Positions 5,049-47,300 of a stretch of DNA of 64,000 nucleotides are shown piece after piece (the stretch's first letter is position 1; the number at the start of each line of letters is the position of its first letter). The translations under genes and the position numbers were made by a program. This DNA comes from Candidatus Kapaibacterium sp. (GTDB taxonomy: Bacteria > Bacteroidota > Ignavibacteria > Kapaibacteriales > UBA2268): the NCBI GenBank assembly GCA_026390695.1, contig JAPLFL010000103.1, positions 8,963 through 72,962 of the forward strand. Reading direction: 5' to 3'. The notes under the pieces are model-generated. The model did no database searches and was not told where the DNA came from. It saw nothing but the letters and a program-made list of their open reading frames with translations.

Positions 5049-5105
5049 ATCTGTTTTTACGTACCTGAAAAAGCAGAGCCAGTGCAGGAAATAATTTTTG
5101 TCAAG

Positions 5106-5467
5106 TGGAGATGGCGGGAGTCGAACCCGCGTCCAAAGTGCCTCTTTCGTAGCTTCTACATGTTTATTTGATCTATAATTTCCCGCCTTCGATTCTGCCG
5201 ATCAACAGGCACTCGAACGCTAACAAGTGTGATTTCTCAAAGCAAGTCCACCCGTGAAACTTACTCCCAGCCTATCTTAAAGCGACACCTCAGTCAAAAC
5301 CGATAGGTAAACCCTGCCTGAGATGTGGCCGGTAAACTTAATTAAGCAGCCATTGCATAGTTATAGTTGTCATTTTTTGTATCAGCAGTTGAATTTACGT
5401 GCGCCACCGCTTAAGCACGACATGCCACTTACGACCTCGTCCACCCTGTCGAAGCCATTTCATCCCC
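5106..5467 (-). ncRNA. ssrA: tmRNA (SsrA)
   Basis: The minus strand starts GGGGATGAAATGGCTTCGAC and ends GGACGCGGGTTCGACTCCCGCCATCTCCA. The internal tag ORF ends in YAMAA-TAA. Confidence 0.97.
5342..5386 (-). other. tmRNA tag reading frame, (A)ADTKNDNYNYAMAA*
   Basis: GCT GAT ACA AAA AAT GAC AAC TAT AAC TAT GCA ATG GCT GCT TAA. The resume codon is inferred from the upstream TCAACT. Confidence 0.75.
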
Positions 5468-6644: not shown

Positions 6645-8021
6645 TCATTTCTTAAGTATAATAAATTCCGTTCTCCGGTTTTGAGCTCTTCCTTCATCAA
6701 GTTTGTTATCAGCTATCGGTTGCTTTTCACCAAAGCCTTTTGAACTTATTCTTGCAGCGGAAATACCTTTATTAACAAGATATTTTTTAACAGCATCGGC
6801 TCTTCGCTGTGAAAGTCTCATATTATATTCTTCATCAGGAGAATTATTTACATTATCAGTATGACCACGAAGCTCGACTTCCATATTAGGATATGATTTC
6901 ATTAGGACAAAGAAATTATCTAATATCGGATTGCTCTCTTTGCTAAGATTTGCCTTATCAAATTCAAATACAACCGGTAATAAACAAACAGTTCCGATAT
7001 CCGGTAAATTATTATAATTTGCGATGGCAATTATTGTTGTATCGGGATAGCAGAATTTCAATGTCAGAGTATGAATCCCAAACTCCTCCGGGCGATATTC
7101 TATCTGGTAATAAGTTCTTAATCGAAAGTAAATATCATCAAACATCTTTGGAAATTCTTCTGTTCTGTAAATATGACGATAAACCCCGCCGCTTGCCAAT
7201 GCAAATTGATTCATATAACCATAATTGATTCCATCACAGAAATCAACTGCATTTATTGATACATTCTTTATAATAGCAAGTTTAATAACAGAATCCTTTT
7301 GAACCGTGGAACTGTTATCAAAGCCATCAGTAAATACAACAACTGCTTTTGTGATTCCTGCAGGCACAGCATCTAACGAATTAATTCCTTCAATTATTCC
7401 ATTTGATATTGCGGTCATTCCACCATAATTTTCCAGACCATTTTTTTGAAATCCGGTTTTAAGTTCATTCTGATTCTGAGTTGCTTTCAACTCAGTTACG
7501 ATATGGTTATCATATTTGATAATTGAATAATAGTCTCTCGGATATTTTTTTTCGATCAATGCTCCAATGGCTTTCTGAACCTCATTAGCACGCCATTGAC
7601 CCATCGACCCGCTATGATCCAAAACGAAGGCAACAGCAATTGTCTGCTCTTCTGCATCAGATTCGCGTAAAATATAATTATTGATTTCCTTTGATTTGCC
7701 ATTAAATTCATCAAAAAATCCGCACCAATTTTTTTTAAAACCTTTACCAGCTGCATCGCTCAGATAGTATTTATTGGAATCCGTCAGATGAACTCTCACC
7801 TTTATCTTCATTGGCTCATGGCTGATAATCTGACTAAGCTCAATCCCCGGTGCTTTCTCTTTACCACTGAATGGAATACTTGTATAAATAAAAGTTGGAT
7901 TATAATCTTTAGGTGGAACTGCATCATTGGTGATTTCGGTCTCACTCTTCTCTTGTAAAAAGCTGCATGAATTTATTAAAAAGGTAGCGCATAAAAGCAG
8001 GATAGTCTTAGTTTTTAACAT
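6645..8021 (-). CDS. VWA-domain plus OmpA-family peptidoglycan-binding lipoprotein
   Basis: Lipobox (INSC), MIDAS DHSGSM, VFTDG, and C-terminal OmpA motifs FEFDKA..GHTD..YNMRLSQRRADAV..GRAQNRRTEF. Confidence 0.88.
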   Translation of the reverse strand: MLKTKTILLLCATFLINSCSFLQEKSETEITNDAVPPKDYNPTFIYTSIPFSGKEKAPGIELSQIISHEPMKIKVRVHLTDSNKYYLSDAAGKGFKKNWCGFFDEFNGKSKEINNYILRESDAEEQTIAVAFVLDHSGSMGQWRANEVQKAIGALIEKKYPRDYYSIIKYDNHIVTELKATQNQNELKTGFQKNGLENYGGMTAISNGIIEGINSLDAVPAGITKAVVVFTDGFDNSSTVQKDSVIKLAIIKNVSINAVDFCDGINYGYMNQFALASGGVYRHIYRTEEFPKMFDDIYFRLRTYYQIEYRPEEFGIHTLTLKFCYPDTTIIAIANYNNLPDIGTVCLLPVVFEFDKANLSKESNPILDNFFVLMKSYPNMEVELRGHTDNVNNSPDEEYNMRLSQRRADAVKKYLVNKGISAARISSKGFGEKQPIADNKLDEGRAQNRRTEFIILKK

Positions 8022-9034: not shown

Positions 9035-9201
9035 AAGATCGTTTCCTACTTGAAAGCTGTCATTTGTGCGTATGCAGGAATCCTCTTCCATGGCGCAATT
9101 GGGGATTCCTGCATTCGCAGGAATGACAAGAAAAGGTAGTTTTCACACTGTCTCATGCGCGGGAATGACAATAATTCCTAATTCATTAAGGAAATGATAT
9201 A
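9035..9201. repeat. Composite MITE/REP locus: outer TA-ended MITE, REP doublet and a GAG-type right end
   Basis: Ends ATCGTTTCCTACTTGAA and TTCATTAAGGAAATGATATA. GGATTCCTGCATTCGCAGGAATGAC inside; CACACTGTCTC|ATGC junction at 9154. Confidence 0.85.
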
Positions 9202-10908: not shown

Positions 10909-11165
10909 GAGGCAGTCTCATAACCCACAAATATACGAAAGCTGTCATTCCCGCATGCGAGCATGTGTAAAAACTCCTTATTGCTGTCATTCCTGCGAAT
11001 GCAGAAATCTCCTAAGGTGCCATAGATGGGGATTCCTGCGTACGCAGGAATGACATTTTTGTTAAATATGTGGCTTTTGAGACGGCATCAATTGATGATT
11101 TTCGGAAACATGAAAAGTTATTTAAATTTGTAGGTTTTTACACAGTCTCATTCGCAGGAACTGTC
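10909..11165. repeat. Composite MITE/REP locus
   Basis: Imperfect inverted ends GAGGCAGTCTCATAACCCACA (10909) and TGTGGCTTTTGAGACGGCATC (to 11089). REP doublet inside; GAG junction at 10959 and CTC junction at 11149. Confidence 0.85.
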
Positions 11166-13371: not shown

Positions 13372-13632
13372 TTGAAATGTATTGTAGGTATTTTGATTAT
13401 GTTTATTAATTCTTTGAATTAGTTTATGTATGTTTTGAAATATCTTATTGATAATTTGCAATAGATTATTTATATTTCATATATGATTAAAGATGATTTG
13501 AATTGTCTTATAAGTATTTTGAATGCTCTTAAAGATGATTTGAATTGTCTTATAAGTATTTTGAATGCTCTTAAAGATGATTTGAATTGTCTTATAAGTA
13601 TTTTGAATGCTCTTAAAGATGATTTGAACTAA
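13372..13632 (+). repeat. 21-bp-period tandem array, left arm of a foldback
   Basis: Three exact 42-bp units AAAGATGATTTGAATTGTCTTATAAGTATTTTGAATGCTCTT (13489-13614), plus degenerate 21-bp units upstream. Confidence 0.85.
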
Positions 13633-13642
13633 TTCAAAAGGT

Positions 13643-13890
13643 TAATAAGAGCATTCATAGAGCTAATAAGAGCATTCATAGAGTTAATAAGAGCATTCAT
13701 AGAGTTAATAAGAGCATTCATAGAGTTAATAAGAGCATTCATAGAGTTAATAAGAGCTTTCAAAAGTATAATAGGAGCATTCAAAATATCTATAAGAGTA
13801 TTCATAGTGTCAATAAAAGTATTCATAGAGCTAATAAGAGCATTCATTAGGTTCATAATGATTTTCAAATGTATGATAAGATATTTCTCA
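13643..13890 (-). repeat. 21-bp tandem array, right arm of the foldback, inverted relative to the left arm
   Basis: TAATAAGAGCATTCATAGAG(T/C) x5 from 13643, then about 7 progressively diverged units. The reverse complement shares TGAATGCTCTTA with the left array. Confidence 0.88.
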
Positions 13891-13891
13891 T

Positions 13892-14090
13892 GTCATTCCC
13901 GCGAATGAGACTGTATAAAAACTCTTTATTTCTGTCATTCCTGCGAATGAGATCGTGTAAAAACTCTTTATTTCTGTCATTCCTGCGAATGTAGGAATCC
14001 CCTTCCATTGGCGCATTTGGAGATTGTAGCATTCTCAGCAATGTCAGAAGAAGAATAAATGGAGATTGCAGCCTTCGCAGGAATGTCAGG
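13892..14090. repeat. Composite REP locus with serially nested GAG-type ends
   Basis: TGTCATTCCYGCGAAT|GAGA..GTRTAAAAACTCTTTATTTC repeated at a 41-42 bp period (GAG at 13908 and 13949), followed by a degenerate REP doublet. Confidence 0.85.
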
Positions 14091-19194: not shown

Positions 19195-19391
19195 GAGACT
19201 GTCTCAAAGGTAGAATATTTACCAAAAATGTCATTCTCGCGCATGAGACTGTGTGAAAACTACCTTTTCTTGTCATTCCTACGCATGCAGGAATTCCCAA
19301 TTGCGCCATGGAAGCGGATTTCTGCATGCGCGGGAATGACATTCCATTGGAATTTCCTCGCGTTCACACACTCTCATGCGCAGGAATGACA
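19195..19391. repeat. Composite MITE/REP locus
   Basis: GAGACTGTCTCAAA at 19195, GCAT|GAGACTGTGTGAAAACT at 19245, inner REP doublet, and CTCTC|ATGC at 19375. Confidence 0.85.
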
Positions 19392-19442
19392 GATGCGATG
19401 CTTTTAAAACTTCCGCTTAGGTGTGTTTGTCATTTTGAGAGT

Positions 19443-23374: not shown

Positions 23375-23458
23375 TCAACCAACTTTATGAACTGACAAAC
23401 TCATTCATCGGGGTAGCCGAAAACCGTGCAGAGTAGGCATAATTTATTAGGAGATTTT

Positions 23459-38968: not shown

Positions 38969-39228
38969 AATATCATTTCCTAAATGAATTAGGAATTACT
39001 GCCATTCCCGCGCATGAGCTTGTGTAAAAACTCACAACTTCTATTGAATTGTCATTCCCGCGCATGCGGGAATCCCCATCCAGTACCAATCAGGAGATTC
39101 CTGCATGCGCAGGAATGACAGAAAAAGATAGTTTTTACACAGGCTCGCATGCGGGAATCCCCATCCAGTACCAATCAGGAGATTCCTGCATACACACAAA
39201 TGACAGCCTTCAAGTAGGAAACAATATA
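38969..39228. mobile_element. Complete three-layer nested element: TA-ended MITE > REP doublet > 131-bp GAG...CTC MITE (39016-39146) with a GCAT duplication
   Basis: Inner ends GAGCTTGTGTAAAAACT and AGTTTTTACACAGGCTC (1 mismatch), flanked by GCAT at 39012-15 and 39147-50. Outer ends TATCATTTCCT and AGGAAACAATATA. Confidence 0.88.
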
Positions 39229-40149: not shown

Positions 40150-41065
40150 ATGAAATTAATAACTTATCTAAATCTTGAAAATCAGGAAAGATTAGGACTT
40201 TATATAAATGGAAAAGTTGCGGATATGCAACTTTCTGCACTTGAAAAATTACGGTGATTTTTTAACAAGCTTTAAACTCATTGCTCCTGTTCCACATCCT
40301 CCTTCATGTAGAGATGGATATGCTTTCAGACAGCACGTTGCTGCCGCCAGAAGGAATCGCGGAGTGGAAATGATCCAAGAATTTGATCAATATCCGATTT
40401 TCTATTTCACTAACCATAATAGTATAATTGGTGGTGGAGATTTAAATGTAGAACTTGATCATTTGATGAAGTTGGACTTTGAACTCGAACTTGCTGCTGT
40501 AATTGGAAAGAAAGGTAAGAATATTCCATCTAATGAAGCAGATGATTATATTGCCGGTTTTACAATTATGAATGATTTCTCAGCTCGTGTCCTTCAAATG
40601 GAAGAAATGTTGCTCAATTTAGGACCCGCAAAAGGGAAAGACTTTGCTACTGCAATCGGCCCTTGGCTTGTAACTCCAGATGAACTTGAAAATTATAGAA
40701 TTTCTACCGAATTTGGAAATGTTTATGATTTATCAATGAAAGCATATCACAGAAGTTTACTTGTTTCATCGGGTAATGCTAAAGATATGAACTGGACTTT
40801 TGCTGAAATTATCGAAAGGGCTTCCTATGGCACTGAGATTTATCCGGGAGATGTTATCGGTTCCGGAACTGTTGGAACTGGCTGCTATCTTGAGATAAAC
40901 GGAACTCGTGCACGCGAAGCCAAAGAAAAAGGCAAAGAGTACAATCCTGTTTGGCTTCAAAATGGGGATATTATTTCATTGGAAATTACCGGCTTGGGGC
41001 GCCTGACCAATAAAGTAGTACTAAGTGATAATAATGTTTCGATATTAAATAAAAAAAAATCCTGA
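40150..41065 (+). pseudogene. fahA: Fumarylacetoacetate hydrolase, split by a frameshift near 40250
   Basis: Frame 1 from ATG 40150 reads MKLITYLNLENQERLGLYINGKVADM and stops at 40255-57. Frame 2 continues LIAPVPHPPSCRDGYAFRQH..LDFELE..NDFSAR..GSGTVGTGC. Confidence 0.75.
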
Positions 41066-42337: not shown

Positions 42338-42544
42338 ATGAATACTTTTTATGAAATAATCGAAGAAACAAATAAGTTTTCTATTGATGAACAGGAAACA
42401 TTTGTTGAAATTTTACAAAAAAGAATTTCTGCTGAAAAGAGAATAAGAATAATTGATGAAGCAAGAGAATCTCGTTTAGAATTTGAGTCGGGTGATAAGC
42501 AAACAACAAGTATTGATGATATAATGAAAGAAATTCTCACTTGA
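42338..42544 (+). CDS. Putative type II antitoxin
   Basis: Acidic 68-aa ORF overlapping the toxin start (TTGA). Confidence 0.7.
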   Translation: MNTFYEIIEETNKFSIDEQETFVEILQKRISAEKRIRIIDEARESRLEFESGDKQTTSIDDIMKEILT

Positions 42545-42840
42545 GCTATTACCTTGTCAAATCATCAAATTTTATTCGATCAGCAAAGAAACTTGCCAGA
42601 AAATATCCGAATTTTCTGATAGAATTGAATGAAACTTTGAAAATATTAACTTCTAATCTTTATGATAGCAGATTAAAAACACACAAACTTAATGGTGAAA
42701 TGAAGGAATTTTGGGCTTGTAGTATAAATTACGAACTTAGAATTATTTTTCAATTGGTTAATGCAATTGATGAAGAATCTGGCAATACTGTAGAAGCAAT
42801 TCTATTAAACAATATAGGGACTCATGATGAAGTGTATTAG
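42541..42840 (+). CDS. RelE/YafQ-like mRNA interferase toxin
   Basis: FIRSAKKL, LKTHKLNG..WACSINYELRIIF and NIGTHDEVY. Confidence 0.85.
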   Translation: MSYYLVKSSNFIRSAKKLARKYPNFLIELNETLKILTSNLYDSRLKTHKLNGEMKEFWACSINYELRIIFQLVNAIDEESGNTVEAILLNNIGTHDEVY

Positions 42841-42930: not shown

Positions 42931-45129
42931 ATGCAATCTGCTCAACCACTTTGGTACCCATCACCTGATCAAATTAAAAACTCAAACATGACAAAATTCA
43001 TGAATTTTGTCAATGTGAAATTTGATCTGAATTTTTTAGATTATTATAATCTTTACGATTGGTCAATTGATAGAATTGAAGATTTTTGGGTAGCGATTTG
43101 GGAATTTTCTGAAATCATTTATTCGAAATCATATAAAACAGTTTTGGATGATCGGAAAATGCCCGGCTCTAAATGGTTTCAAGGTGCTGAACTAAATTTT
43201 GCTGAGAATCTTTTAAAATATCGAGATGATAGAATTGCTCTTATTTATAATAATGAAAAAAATGAGAGAATTAGCCTTTCATATCGTGAACTTTACGCAC
43301 AGGTTGCCGAATGCGCTGCGGGACTAAAAAAGCTTGGAGTTAGAAAATGTGATAGAGTTGCAGCATTAATTTCTAATATCCCTGAGGCGATTATTGCAAT
43401 GCTTGCCACGACCTCGATTGGTGCAGTTTGGTCATCAACATCGCCGGATTTCGGATTAAGCGGGATTCTTGACCGCTTTGAACAAATCAATCCAAAGGTT
43501 CTGTTTGCAGTGAATGGATATACCTATAACGGAACAGATTTTGATTGCTCAGAAAAAATCGAAGGAATTTGTTCGCAAATTATTAGTTTAGAGAAAATTG
43601 TCATCATTCCGAAAATTCAATCGACAATTGAAAATTTAATTCCTGTTAATTCTGAGAATGCAGGAATCATCAATTGCGAATCTTCTGTCATTCCTGCCAA
43701 TTCAGGAATCTCCTTCCATTCCACCATAGGAGATTCCTGCATTCGAGAGTGTGTGAAAACTCGAAATAATAACGTATCTGTCATTCCCGCGCATGCGGGA
43801 ATTCCCTTCCAGTACCAATCAGGGGATTCCTGCATTCGCAGGAATGACAACGGAGAAGTTACAAATGACACTGAAGATATGGACAGCAAAAGTAAATTTA
43901 TCTTCTGGAATGATTTTATTGATAAAAATGCAGTAGAAATTGAATTTGAACAATTGCCATTTGATCATCCTGTTTATATTATGTATTCATCGGGTACTAC
44001 AGGTGTACCGAAATGTATCGTTCATGGCGCTGGTGGAACTCTGCTTCAGCATTTCAAAGAGCTCAGCCTCCATACTAATCTAACACGGGATGATGTGATT
44101 ACTTATTTTACGACTTGTGGCTGGATGATGTGGAACTGGCTTGTGAGTTCACTAAACAGCGGCGCAACAATTTTTCTATTCGATGGCTCACCTTCATATC
44201 CGAATATAAACATTCTTTGGAAAACAATTGAAGTTGAAAAAATAACAATTTTCGGTACAAGCCCGAAATTCCTGAGTACATGCCAAAAATCAGGTATTAA
44301 GCCTGGAAGAGAATTTGATCTTTCATCATTAAAAACTATCTTATCAACCGGCTCTCCTCTTTCGTCAGATGAATTTCAATGGGTATATTCCGATGTTAAA
44401 ACTGATATTCGCTTATCTTCAATTTCTGGCGGCACGGATATTATCTCGTGCTTTATGTTAGGAAATCCTAATCTTCCGGTTTATTCGGGTGAGATTCAGT
44501 GCCGTGGATTAGGAATGAAAGTCGAATCTTATGACGAAAATGCAGATGGAATTATAGATGTAAAAGGGGAATTAGTTTGCACTGCACCTTTTATTTCGAT
44601 GCCTGTATATTTTTGGAATGACCCTGAAAATAAATTATATTTTAATAGTTACTTCAATGTTTTTACCGATGTTTGGTGCCATGGTGATTTTATTAAAATA
44701 ACTGATAGAGGTGGTGTGATTGTTTATGGTCGTTCTGACGCAACTCTTAACCCTGGTGGCGTGCGTATCGGATCTGCAGAAATTTATAGAGTTATAGAAT
44801 CAATTGAGGAAATAAACGATAGTATAGTCGTGGGAGTCAATCATGATAATGATATTCGGATTGTACTTTTTGTTGTTACCAAATTAGATATTAATTTAAC
44901 TAATGAATTAATTGTTAAAATAAAATCCAAGATAAGGGTAATGCTCACTCCTCGGCATGTTCCTTATATTATAAAGGCAATAAACCAAGTACCAGTGACA
45001 TTCAATGGTAAGAAAGTAGAATTAGCAGTTACAAAAATACTTAATGGTGAACAAGTCAAAAATTTAAGTGCAATTGCTAACCCGGAGTCACTGGCACAGT
45101 TTGTTGATATTATATCGTTTCCTACTTGA
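42931..45129 (+). CDS. Acetoacetyl-CoA synthetase with an in-frame REP-derived insertion
   Basis: WFQGAELNFAENLL, FDHPVYIMYSSGTTGVPKCIVH, TTCGWMMWNW, ISGGTD and GRSDATLNPGGVRIG; about 70 aa of repeat-derived insert. Confidence 0.92.
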   Translation: MQSAQPLWYPSPDQIKNSNMTKFMNFVNVKFDLNFLDYYNLYDWSIDRIEDFWVAIWEFSEIIYSKSYKTVLDDRKMPGSKWFQGAELNFAENLLKYRDDRIALIYNNEKNERISLSYRELYAQVAECAAGLKKLGVRKCDRVAALISNIPEAIIAMLATTSIGAVWSSTSPDFGLSGILDRFEQINPKVLFAVNGYTYNGTDFDCSEKIEGICSQIISLEKIVIIPKIQSTIENLIPVNSENAGIINCESSVIPANSGISFHSTIGDSCIRECVKTRNNNVSVIPAHAGIPFQYQSGDSCIRRNDNGEVTNDTEDMDSKSKFIFWNDFIDKNAVEIEFEQLPFDHPVYIMYSSGTTGVPKCIVHGAGGTLLQHFKELSLHTNLTRDDVITYFTTCGWMMWNWLVSSLNSGATIFLFDGSPSYPNINILWKTIEVEKITIFGTSPKFLSTCQKSGIKPGREFDLSSLKTILSTGSPLSSDEFQWVYSDVKTDIRLSSISGGTDIISCFMLGNPNLPVYSGEIQCRGLGMKVESYDENADGIIDVKGELVCTAPFISMPVYFWNDPENKLYFNSYFNVFTDVWCHGDFIKITDRGGVIVYGRSDATLNPGGVRIGSAEIYRVIESIEEINDSIVVGVNHDNDIRIVLFVVTKLDINLTNELIVKIKSKIRVMLTPRHVPYIIKAINQVPVTFNGKKVELAVTKILNGEQVKNLSAIANPESLAQFVDIISFPT
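43640..43849. repeat. Composite REP/GAG-end locus inside the acetoacetyl-CoA synthetase CDS
   Basis: TGTCATTCCTGCCAATTCAGGAATC, ATTC|GAGAGTGTGTGAAAACT (43745), and a full doublet at 43779-43849. Confidence 0.9.
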
Positions 45130-45279
45130 AGGCTGTCATTCCCGCGCATGAGACTGTGTGAAAACTTCAATTTCTTGTCATTCCTGCGCATGCAGGAATC
45201 CCCAAAATGTGCTACAGGAAGGGGATTCCCGCATGCGCGGGAATGACAATAATTCCTAATTCATTAAGGAAATGATATA
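45111..45279. mobile_element. TA-ended MITE carrying a REP doublet and a GAG end; supplies the stop codon of the synthetase
   Basis: TATATCGTTTCCTACTTGAA ... TTCATTAAGGAAATGATATA; the TGA at 45127-29 lies inside the left end. Confidence 0.85.
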
Positions 45280-45353: not shown

Positions 45354-45367
45354 GTATTTTATTGCCG

Positions 45368-45440
45368 TGCTCAGGGCCGGAGTTGAACCAGCGACACATG
45401 GATTTTCAGTCCATTGCTCTACCAACTGAGCTACCTGAGC
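45368..45440 (-). tRNA. tRNA-Phe (GAA), CCA not encoded
   Basis: GCTCAGG/CCTGAGC acceptor stem, TAGCTCAGTTGGTAGAGC D-arm, CTGAAAA anticodon loop and GGTTCAACTCC T-arm. Confidence 0.96.
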
Positions 45441-47148: not shown

Positions 47149-47300
47149 TGTCATTCTTGCGAAAATCATCAATCGAGGCCGTCTCAAAAGCCACATATTT
47201 AACAAAAATGTCATTCCTGCGTATGCAGGAATCTCCTTCCAGTGCCAATTTAGGGGATTCCTGCATTCGAGACTGTGTAAAAACTATGAAATTCCAATGG
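47149..47300. repeat. Composite MITE/REP locus
   Basis: GAAAATCATCAATCGAGGCCGTCTCAAAAGCCACATATTTAACAAAAATGTC is a near-exact reverse complement of 11051-11103. ATTC|GAGACTGTGTAAAAACT at 47269. Confidence 0.85.

Follow-up and report, generated by a model that had tools for sequence, protein, structure and literature searches.

The locus and its host gene

In the 64,000-nt stretch analysed here (the window; G+C 33.8%), part of contig JAPLFL010000103.1 of the Candidatus Kapaibacterium sp. assembly GCA_026390695.1, an open reading frame (ORF) of 732 aa at 42931..45129 (+) carries an array of repetitive extragenic palindromes (REPs) that can be read in frame from end to end. From the ORF list and NCBIfam, the ORF is predicted to encode an acetoacetate-CoA ligase (acetoacetyl-CoA synthetase). 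The whole REP-derived insert occupies 43640..43849 (+; 210 nt, 70 codons, aa 237–307) and contains no stop codon. The first-pass annotation of this DNA had reported both the host enzyme and a frame open across 43640–43849, and both claims stand, together with the peptide it quoted, the bordering KIVIIP and FIFWNDF sequences and the downstream SSGTTG.

The ORF is a full-length match to the acetoacetate-CoA ligase family of the ANL superfamily, with 909.8 bits against NCBIfam NF002937, whose curated cutoff is 639, and 842.8 bits against TIGR01217, where the cutoff is 520.9; Pfam recognises ACAS_N and AMP-binding domains. Its best solved relative is the acetoacetyl-CoA synthetase of Streptomyces lividans (4wd1, E 1.5e-169). 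The NCBIfam, Pfam and 4wd1 matches each come as two stretches with the insert between them; the first 4wd1 stretch stops at query residue 229 and the second begins at residue 335 (4wd1) or 313 (NCBIfam model). Furthermore, the characteristic ANL motifs are present, with YSSGTTGVPK at aa 352–361 and GKKVE near the C-terminus at aa 693–697, both of them among the (near-)invariant columns of the family.

Anatomy of the insert

Three units and a box make up the insert, all on the + strand. Unit 1 (43645..43680) is a degenerate REP followed by the first half of an AATTGCG-type loop, that is, a truncated doublet, with the tag TGTT and six of eight stem pairs. In unit 2 (43687..43744), a REP with seven of eight stem pairs precedes a 21-nt loop, after which the inverted arm, GATTCCTGCATTC, is cut short. 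This unit is followed at 43745..43779 by a 17-nt box, GAGAGTGTGTGAAAACT (43745–43761), and an 18-nt spacer, together read as ECVKTRNNNVS. Unit 3 (43780..43848) is a complete inverted REP doublet of 69 nt, or 23 codons, translated as VIPAHAGIPFQYQSGDSCIRRND. Four REP units are thus recognisable, at 43645–43668 (degenerate), 43687–43710, 43780–43803 and, inverted, 43825–43848, in addition to the truncated inverted arm at 43732–43744 that is fused to the box. The insert had been described earlier as two REP doublets with a GAG end; a repeat array it is, but one built from a truncated degenerate unit, a doublet with a cut arm plus box, and a single complete 69-nt doublet.

Two parts of the insert have counterparts between genes. 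Unit 2 with its box (43687–43761) is built exactly like the intergenic copy at 47210–47284, and unit 3 differs from the intergenic doublet at 39051–39119 at only 4 of 69 positions, loop included. The extra residues of the ligase, about 70 in number, are therefore repeat-derived as had been proposed, the same array being found between genes as well. The hairpin of unit 3 is intact (∼27 bp, −41.1 kcal/mol) and that of unit 1 is no better than shuffled sequence (z −1.3), while the 231-nt region as a whole folds much more strongly than its shuffles (z −7.3). There is no intrinsic-terminator-like site at the insert.

The same-sense units lie 42 and 93 nt apart, and these spacings place all three in one frame, where they are read as VNSENAGI, VIPANSGI and VIPAHAGI. 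The encoded peptide runs VNSENAGI..VIPANSGI..GDSCIRECVKT..VIPAHAGIPFQYQSGDSCIRRND and contributes four cysteines. In the predicted protein, the right flank of the insert gives the unique peptide NDNGEVTNDTEDMDSK, and a tryptic peptide is NNNVSVIPAHAGIPFQYQSGDSCIR.

How surprising is an open frame of this length? The insert is open in two of its six frames. The second stop-free frame of the REP array accounts for a 90-aa ORF on the opposite strand (43617–43889, −; …RMQESPDWYWKGIPACAGM…), lying within the insert and its flanks, which is almost certainly spurious. Five of the six complete doublets in the window are 69 nt long, and the one at 45177 is 71 nt; whichever way a doublet is oriented, two of its three frames, usually 0 and 1, lack stop codons in most cases. 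Over all placements in the intergenic arrays, segments of 69 nt are stop-free in 48% of cases, those of 93 nt in 35% and those of 141 nt in 14%; composition-matched shuffles of the 210-nt insert are open in frame in 2.4% of cases. The open frame across the insert is thus only moderately remarkable. A REP-rich genome will occasionally place a stop-free, in-frame array in a gene, only those in permissive sites will persist, and selection for an open frame beyond this filter need not be invoked.

Thirty nucleotides 5′ of the insert, the K-I-V-I-I-P codons (43598–43613; AAA ATT GTC ATC ATT CCG) resemble a REP head, GTCATTCC, and pair at 75% with the last REP arm. This likeness may be due to chance, or to a microhomology that favoured capture of the repeat.

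The repeat family in the window

The repeat unit has the form TGTC-ATTCCYGC-NNNN-GCRGGAAT-CCC. A 26-mer, GGGATTCCTGCATTCGCAGGAATGAC, finds 12 matches in the window at up to three mismatches and none in 100 shuffles. At up to five mismatches there are 19 REP units, distributed over the ligase insert and seven clusters that all lie between ORFs (∼9059–9160, 10943–11160, 13897–14087, 19229–19392, 39000–39204, 45135–45247 and 47210–47284), so that one cluster in eight is intragenic. The cluster at 45135..45247, composed of a half-REP, a box and a full doublet, begins 5 nt past the stop codon of the ligase itself, which is the usual location for the family.

The units are arranged in two modules. 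The first is the inverted doublet of 69–71 nt, made of a REP, a gap of ∼21 nt (21–23 nt) and an inverted REP. Six complete doublets occur in the window, five intergenic and one intragenic, and each forms one hairpin with a folding energy between −37 and −52 kcal/mol (z −7 to −10). In the second module a 17-nt box, GAGACTGTGTGAAAACT, is joined to a half-REP, and ∼14 nt follow. Box matches, on either strand, lie at 9143, 10959, 11139, 13913, 13949, 19245, 39022, 39130, 45156 and 47260.

The TGTC tag is kept in 13 of 15 intergenic matches, which represent 14 real units since the match with GGGG at 11029 is the same palindrome read on the opposite strand, and in three of the four intragenic units. 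The tail is CCC in six and CTC in five of the same 15 matches. Stems follow ATTCCYGC / GCRGGAAT with loops GCAT, GAAT, GTAT or GTAC; most copies pair at all eight positions, and a compensatory exchange of T:A for C:G is seen in the stems. Direct repeats of 1–9 nt, as expected of a target-site duplication, flank none of the six doublets, nor the insert as a whole, and Rfam holds no family for the repeat.

At 13881–13991 the half-REP and box module (GTCATTCCCGCGAATGAGACTGTATAAAAACTCTTTATTTCT) is repeated 2.7 times in tandem with a period of 42 nt, showing that such arrays can grow by local duplication. An 857-nt intergenic region adjoining a REP cluster also contains two neighbouring tandem arrays, at 13413–13628 and 13641–13847, one of them built on a unit of 42 nt (3.4 copies with 100% matches), the other on a unit of 21 nt (9.9 copies, 86%); the cores of these two arrays are reverse complements of each other (TGAATGCTCTTA / TAAGAGCATTCA).

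Homologues and the closest relative

The ligase was compared with its 119 best database homologues, from metagenome-assembled genomes (MAGs) of Ignavibacteria type, in an alignment of 120 sequences. The homologues are 634–664 aa long and the best is ∼70% identical. In all 119 of them the segment from the KIVIIP strand to the FIFWNDF helix measures 11–21 aa, against 95 aa in the window protein, and this linker is the most length-variable part of the family. The expectation of enzymes of about 650 aa with a short variable linker at this point is therefore borne out. The insert, which this orthologue alignment delimits, is a gap in 119 of 119 homologues. In a leave-one-out comparison, 134 columns show no variation among the other 119 sequences, and the ligase agrees with them at 133, the sole change being a conservative T to S.

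Searching with the insert peptide returned only two small hypothetical ORFs, MCX6155906.1 and MCX6154321.1, and no second protein with the insert. These two are small REP-coded ORFs from a ‘Candidatus Kapabacteria bacterium’ MAG and resemble the 90-aa ORF on the minus strand described above.

The closest relative (protein P0002, ∼70% identity) has an uninterrupted linker, KIQSNVTLSSK. In its loci (L080–L082) a fumarylacetoacetate (FAA) hydrolase gene stands directly upstream of the ligase orthologue, as one stands upstream at 40208–41065 in the window, and this shared neighbour supports orthology. The same REP family is found between the genes of the relative and not in its ligase, which indicates that the insertion is specific to the lineage of the window and occurred where the repeat was already hosted. 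Two marks of an in-frame palindromic insert are thereby found, namely a repeat present both between genes and, stop-free, in a conserved gene, and orthologues without it, the nearest empty-site comparator being only ∼70% identical. In the spacer between the FAA-hydrolase and ligase genes of the relative (L080:3963–4268), two REP-like half sites surround about five tandem units of ∼45 nt (TTTACTCCCCTCTCTATAAATTGAGAAGGAA…); the arrangement resembles a REP doublet broken up by a second family of repeats.

Predicted structure of the ligase

The AlphaFold2 model was computed with the 120-sequence alignment, a run with 14 sequences (mean predicted local distance difference test score, pLDDT, of 60) being too weak to interpret. 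The mean pLDDT of the model is 79.5, with most core blocks above 90. Residues 231–319 have pLDDT values of 21–39 and no secondary structure, and the flanking strand (222–226) and helix (326–329) belong to blocks at 90 or above. A Foldseek search with the model returned 4wd1 as the top match (E 6e-71; template modelling score 0.85, normalised to the target), consistent with the two-domain ANL fold. In the model, then, the ANL fold is normal and the insert on it is best taken as a long disordered loop, in keeping with the loop that had been proposed. We infer an exposed position for it from the variable length of the linker and from the low-confidence coil.

Assembly support

The assembly was checked against Logan contigs; three freshwater-metagenome runs, all from one study, hold the sequence. 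In two of them (X1 and X2) one contig is exact over 43300–43774, comprising the N-terminal coding part and 135 nt of the array, and a second is exact over 43823–44300, where the last REP arm passes into the C-terminal part. The two junction contigs occur at single-copy depth (11.9 and 15.6 in X1; 47.2 and 43 in X2). Both gene–repeat junctions are thus confirmed independently. Between them, at 43775–43822, only short exact repeat unitigs form a bridge, with depths of 4 to 400 times single-copy. What lies inside the last doublet and, in the strict sense, the doublet count are thus outside the confirmed part. The misassembly raised in the first-pass annotation as a possible refutation is accordingly answered at both junctions and in two runs, and not at 43802–43804, which are unspanned. 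With both junctions confirmed and the canonical doublet length of 69 nt, the in-frame reading across the last doublet is likely, not proven.

Comparison with known repeat systems

Short REPs of the CGTC-1 type have been defined by a CGTC tag (with TGTC and CCTC variants), an 8-bp stem starting with AT, a 4-nt loop, a CCA tail and an arrangement in inverted dimers (Di Nocera et al., 2013; PMC3733652, here and below for the portion of that paper drawn on). The same source equates CGTC-1 with the Neisseria dRS3 repeat and with RPE-6 of Rickettsia conorii, describes CGTC REPs as lacking a dedicated transposase, and places the family mainly in Alphaproteobacteria and in five phyla overall. By its sequence, the window unit fits this CGTC-1 type: it shares the TGTC tag, the 8-bp stem starting with AT, the 4-nt loop, the inverted dimers that form one long hairpin, and the siting, mostly just 3′ of ORFs and occasionally in frame within them. 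The first-pass annotation had invoked the palindromic elements of Rickettsia (Rickettsia palindromic elements, RPEs) as a precedent, and through RPE-6 and dRS3 the relationship would be closer than an analogy, the likeness to these two being judged by the published definition of CGTC-1 and not by the sequences of the named members. There are also differences. The tail in the window, unpaired, C-rich and 3 nt long, is CCC or CTC in place of the published consensus CCA, the host is a low-GC, Ignavibacteria/Kapabacteria-like freshwater MAG, and the units regularly carry the 17-nt box on a half-REP, a feature not part of CGTC-1 as described in that portion of PMC3733652.

Intragenic copies are no novelty for such repeats. 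According to the same portion of that paper, GTAG and CGTC REPs lie within genes in several species, more than half of them as dimers or groups coding for 20–30 aa; intragenic clusters in Thauera and R. conorii code for 43–82 aa, and it is argued that such inserts may be neutral because linkers or loops that house them are flexible. The first palindromic inserts known to lie in frame were those of RPE-1 in Rickettsia, in 19 ORFs, and an RPE-bearing guanylate kinase of Rickettsia is translated and active with an altered substrate affinity; positive effects of RPE-type inserts were left open (PMC2229807). ORF fusions by small repeats have also been reviewed (PMC3184786). Like the window repeat, the Rickettsia RPEs (Ogata et al., 2000; 2002; via PMC2229807 and the portion of PMC3733652) are found both between genes and in frame in enzyme genes, where they add tens of residues without breaking the ORF and have been proposed to form a neutral or slightly detrimental loop. 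In contrast, RPE-1 is a single element of 105–146 bp and unrelated sequence, whereas the ligase insert is a mosaic of short REP units; and Rickettsia has dozens of RPE-bearing genes, whereas the window has one intragenic cluster in eight, known from sequence alone.

The window clusters also resemble the bacterial interspersed mosaic elements and GTAG REPs of Enterobacteria and Pseudomonas, being alternating clusters of short REP hairpins with conserved linker modules, placed after stop codons and forming strong RNA or DNA hairpins. They differ in their TGTC tag from the GTAG REPs mobilised by REP-associated tyrosine transposases (RAYTs). A small REP-flanked ORF that could serve as a candidate REPtron was sought in the window and in at least 67 further loci with nothing usable found, a search that did not include one for RAYT domains; among the matches listed, the only REP-flanked ORFs of 100–260 aa are two overlapping frames at a high-GC locus (L060). 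Membership of the RAYT-mobilised GTAG class, or of a REPtron, was rejected on the tag and on the absence of a usable small ORF from that search. Together with the absence of target-site duplications, these features are in line with a repeat that has no dedicated transposase. With the bacterial MITEs (miniature transposable elements with inverted repeats; Correia, ERIC, Nezha and others; PMC3184786) the 69-nt doublet shares inverted arms of ∼27 bp and a long stem-loop, ORF fusions by such MITEs being documented, but it is much shorter than is typical of them and has neither a target-site duplication nor TA ends. MITE membership was rejected because, despite the inverted arms, the duplication is absent at six of six doublets.

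Distribution of the repeat across phyla

The exact 27-nt REP core, GTCATTCCYGCGNATGCRGGAATYCCC, was found at at least 67 loci (L001–L067) in a scan of one genome per species. Among the matches listed, these are labelled Ignavibacteria, KSB1, Cytophagia, Calditrichia, Spirochaetia, Dehalococcoidia, Rickettsiales, Patescibacteria, Devosia, ‘archaeon’ and others, and the loci are unrelated to the window beyond the repeat itself. The CGTC REP family thus appears broader than the five phyla given in the portion of the 2013 account drawn on (PMC3733652). An origin of the repeat family from the ligase gene was considered and rejected, the core being widespread across phyla.

Long open frames that cross REPs are mostly trivial among the matches listed, such as a high-GC frame (L060) and an N-terminal region (L047). 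In a Spirochaetia MAG, a 748-codon frame with a PhageMin_Tail (phage minor-tail) domain (L044:2728–4971, −) takes in a single REP unit at 2830–2852 (GGGGATTCCCGCATCCGCGGGAATGAC), whose in-frame reading, GDSRIRGND, lies about 40 aa from the end of the frame. By its motif, the same REP type thus has a further intragenic copy in a phylum other than that of the window. In an Ignavibacteria MAG (L023:6925–7998, +), a frame with 4Fe–4S domains runs through a REP at 7801–7823 (…NVIPANAGIP…) near its C-terminus, probably a repeat-supplied C-terminal extension; no stop codon is reached within the locus. When metagenomes were scanned twice with the REP-plus-box composite, 0 and 12 loci were obtained, without an intragenic copy in any.

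Probable origin and tolerance of the insert

We consider it likely that the insert is genuine, an in-frame REP array that is tolerated, and probably neutral, because the loop is permissive. A CGTC-1-type array would have been copied into, or built up inside, a functional-looking ligase coding sequence, in the codons of the variable linker between the KIVIIP strand and the FIFWNDFI helix and just 5′ of the ATP-binding SSGTTG. With stop-free units and an overall length divisible by three, the array leaves the ORF open, and this would add about 70 residues in the form of an unstructured loop. The 141 nt that are left without the 69-nt doublet are also in frame, which makes a stepwise origin possible; the array may have grown in in-frame steps, with 141 nt of older, now degraded units followed by the fresh 69-nt doublet. 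The insert would then most likely be neutral or mildly deleterious selfish DNA that survives by virtue of the permissive loop, and not an adaptation. Translation, retained activity, the stepwise origin and a mechanism of mobilisation are what we infer from these features. Moreover, units 1 and 2 are partly unpaired and the ORF around them is intact, which suggests that the gene was under selection after the earlier insertion; the last doublet, as fresh as the intergenic copies, carries no information on selection either way.

A number of observations weigh on the other side. The 3′ doublet is as pristine as the intergenic copies (−41 kcal/mol; 4 of 69 positions different from the copy at 39051), and it could be too recent for an inactivated gene to show decay. 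Its RNA duplex of ∼27 bp would plausibly act within the mRNA as a substrate for RNase III and as an obstacle to translation. The ligase deviates at 9 of the 228 columns conserved at 95% or more, ranking fifth of 120 (the others have a mean of 2.3 and a maximum of 12); this number is high, yet within range for a sequence that diverges more than any other in the set, and it is compatible with the outlying phylogenetic position of the ligase, but also with some relaxation of constraint. No RNA run holding the ligase gene was found, which bears on its transcription, translation and activity. Lastly, the independent contigs contain no exact unitig or 31-mer across 43802–43804, although Logan contigs drop minor repeat variants, so that this gap is not evidence against the window sequence.

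Some of these points would be accommodated if the insertion had killed or crippled the enzyme, leaving a young pseudogene or a strongly down-regulated gene in which the event, or at least the arrival of the last doublet, is recent and the frame has stayed open only through the chance lack of stops in the elements. The undegraded 3′ doublet (−41.1 kcal/mol, like the intergenic copies), the nine deviations against a mean of 2.3, the lack of an RNA run holding the gene and the frequency with which 69–141 nt of REP array are stop-free by chance (14–48%) would all fit such a history. However, units 1 and 2 show decay (six to seven of eight pairs, a mutated tag, truncation), yet the 732-codon frame is whole and 133 of 134 invariant positions are kept. 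Furthermore, among the linkers of the family only the one that took the insertion varies in length, and only 2.4% of composition-matched 210-nt shuffles are open. On balance we regard loss of the gene as unlikely.

A more far-reaching proposal is that CGTC-type REPs are a cross-phylum source of new protein loops, and no peculiarity of Rickettsia, and that the ligase array has been retained for a reason, for which the hairpin, as an RNase III or ribosome-pausing site that sets expression, or a regulatory loop with four cysteines may be candidates. The core found across phyla among the matches listed and the in-frame Spirochaetia copy are hints in this direction, and the proposal as a whole is speculative and rather improbable.

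It is also improbable that the halves of the gene are real and the repeat path between them was mis-resolved, the true locus being out of frame, longer or shorter. The check rests on Logan contigs and not on raw reads, 43775–43822 is bridged by short repeat unitigs alone, and X2 holds no exact unitig over 43802–43804. Against this, an independent assembler gives 43300–43774 and 43823–44300 identically, at single-copy depth and in two samples; the missing piece has the canonical length of 69 nt, found in five of six copies, so that base-level errors there would be frame-neutral; and no skip joint matching an empty site was seen in the contigs.

Very improbable, finally, is a co-option of the array as an mRNA element (an RNase III or ribosome-pausing hairpin) or as a cysteine-containing regulatory or interaction loop, for although the 231-nt region folds strongly (z −7.3), the doublet hairpin is fully kept inside the gene, the insert brings four cysteines and positive effects were left open for the Rickettsia elements (PMC2229807), hairpins of equal strength in every intergenic copy leave nothing gene-specific, the older units have lost their pairing, no homologue with the insert provides conservation that would indicate function, and AlphaFold2 shows no structure in it.

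The tolerated in-frame array that we favour does not alter current understanding, as intragenic REP clusters of similar size have been catalogued and the mechanism class, REP type and size range are already covered by the portion of PMC3733652 drawn on. Three things are new: the lineage in which the array sits, the gene that carries it (an ANL-family ligase for which a homologue has been solved) and its association with the box module. The locus offers a clean natural case in which non-coding selfish DNA has become predicted protein sequence in a well-understood enzyme (4wd1 homologue), outside the obligate intracellular bacteria in which such inserts became famous. It could be used to test how far ANL loops tolerate unstructured sequence and how hairpins within coding regions affect expression. 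For annotation, it is a reminder that REP-coded peptides (VIPAxAGI, GDSCIRRND) in real genes are insertions and not domains.

Neighbouring genes and further features

The gene upstream of the ligase at 40208..41065 (+) belongs to the fumarylacetoacetate-hydrolase family (Pfam PF01557, E 1.3e-50). Fumarylacetoacetase-type enzymes release acetoacetate, and a gene of this acetoacetate-yielding class provides a sensible pathway context for the predicted ligase. Between the two genes, at 42338–42840 (+), a pair of small ORFs lies beside a flavin-reductase-like gene; it comprises a 68-aa ORF without a Pfam match and an overlapping 99-aa ORF whose match to a YafQ-type toxin (PF15738) has 30 bits and just reaches the cutoff. 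The closest relative has its FAA-hydrolase gene next to the ligase, without such genes between them.

Among the RNA genes of the window are a tmRNA (5103–5467, −) with the tag peptide ADTKNDNYNYAMAA and a tRNA-Phe (GAA) at 45367–45440 (−). A DUF805b RNA motif is matched at 23407–23439 (+), barely over its cutoff (35.8 against 35.6 bits).

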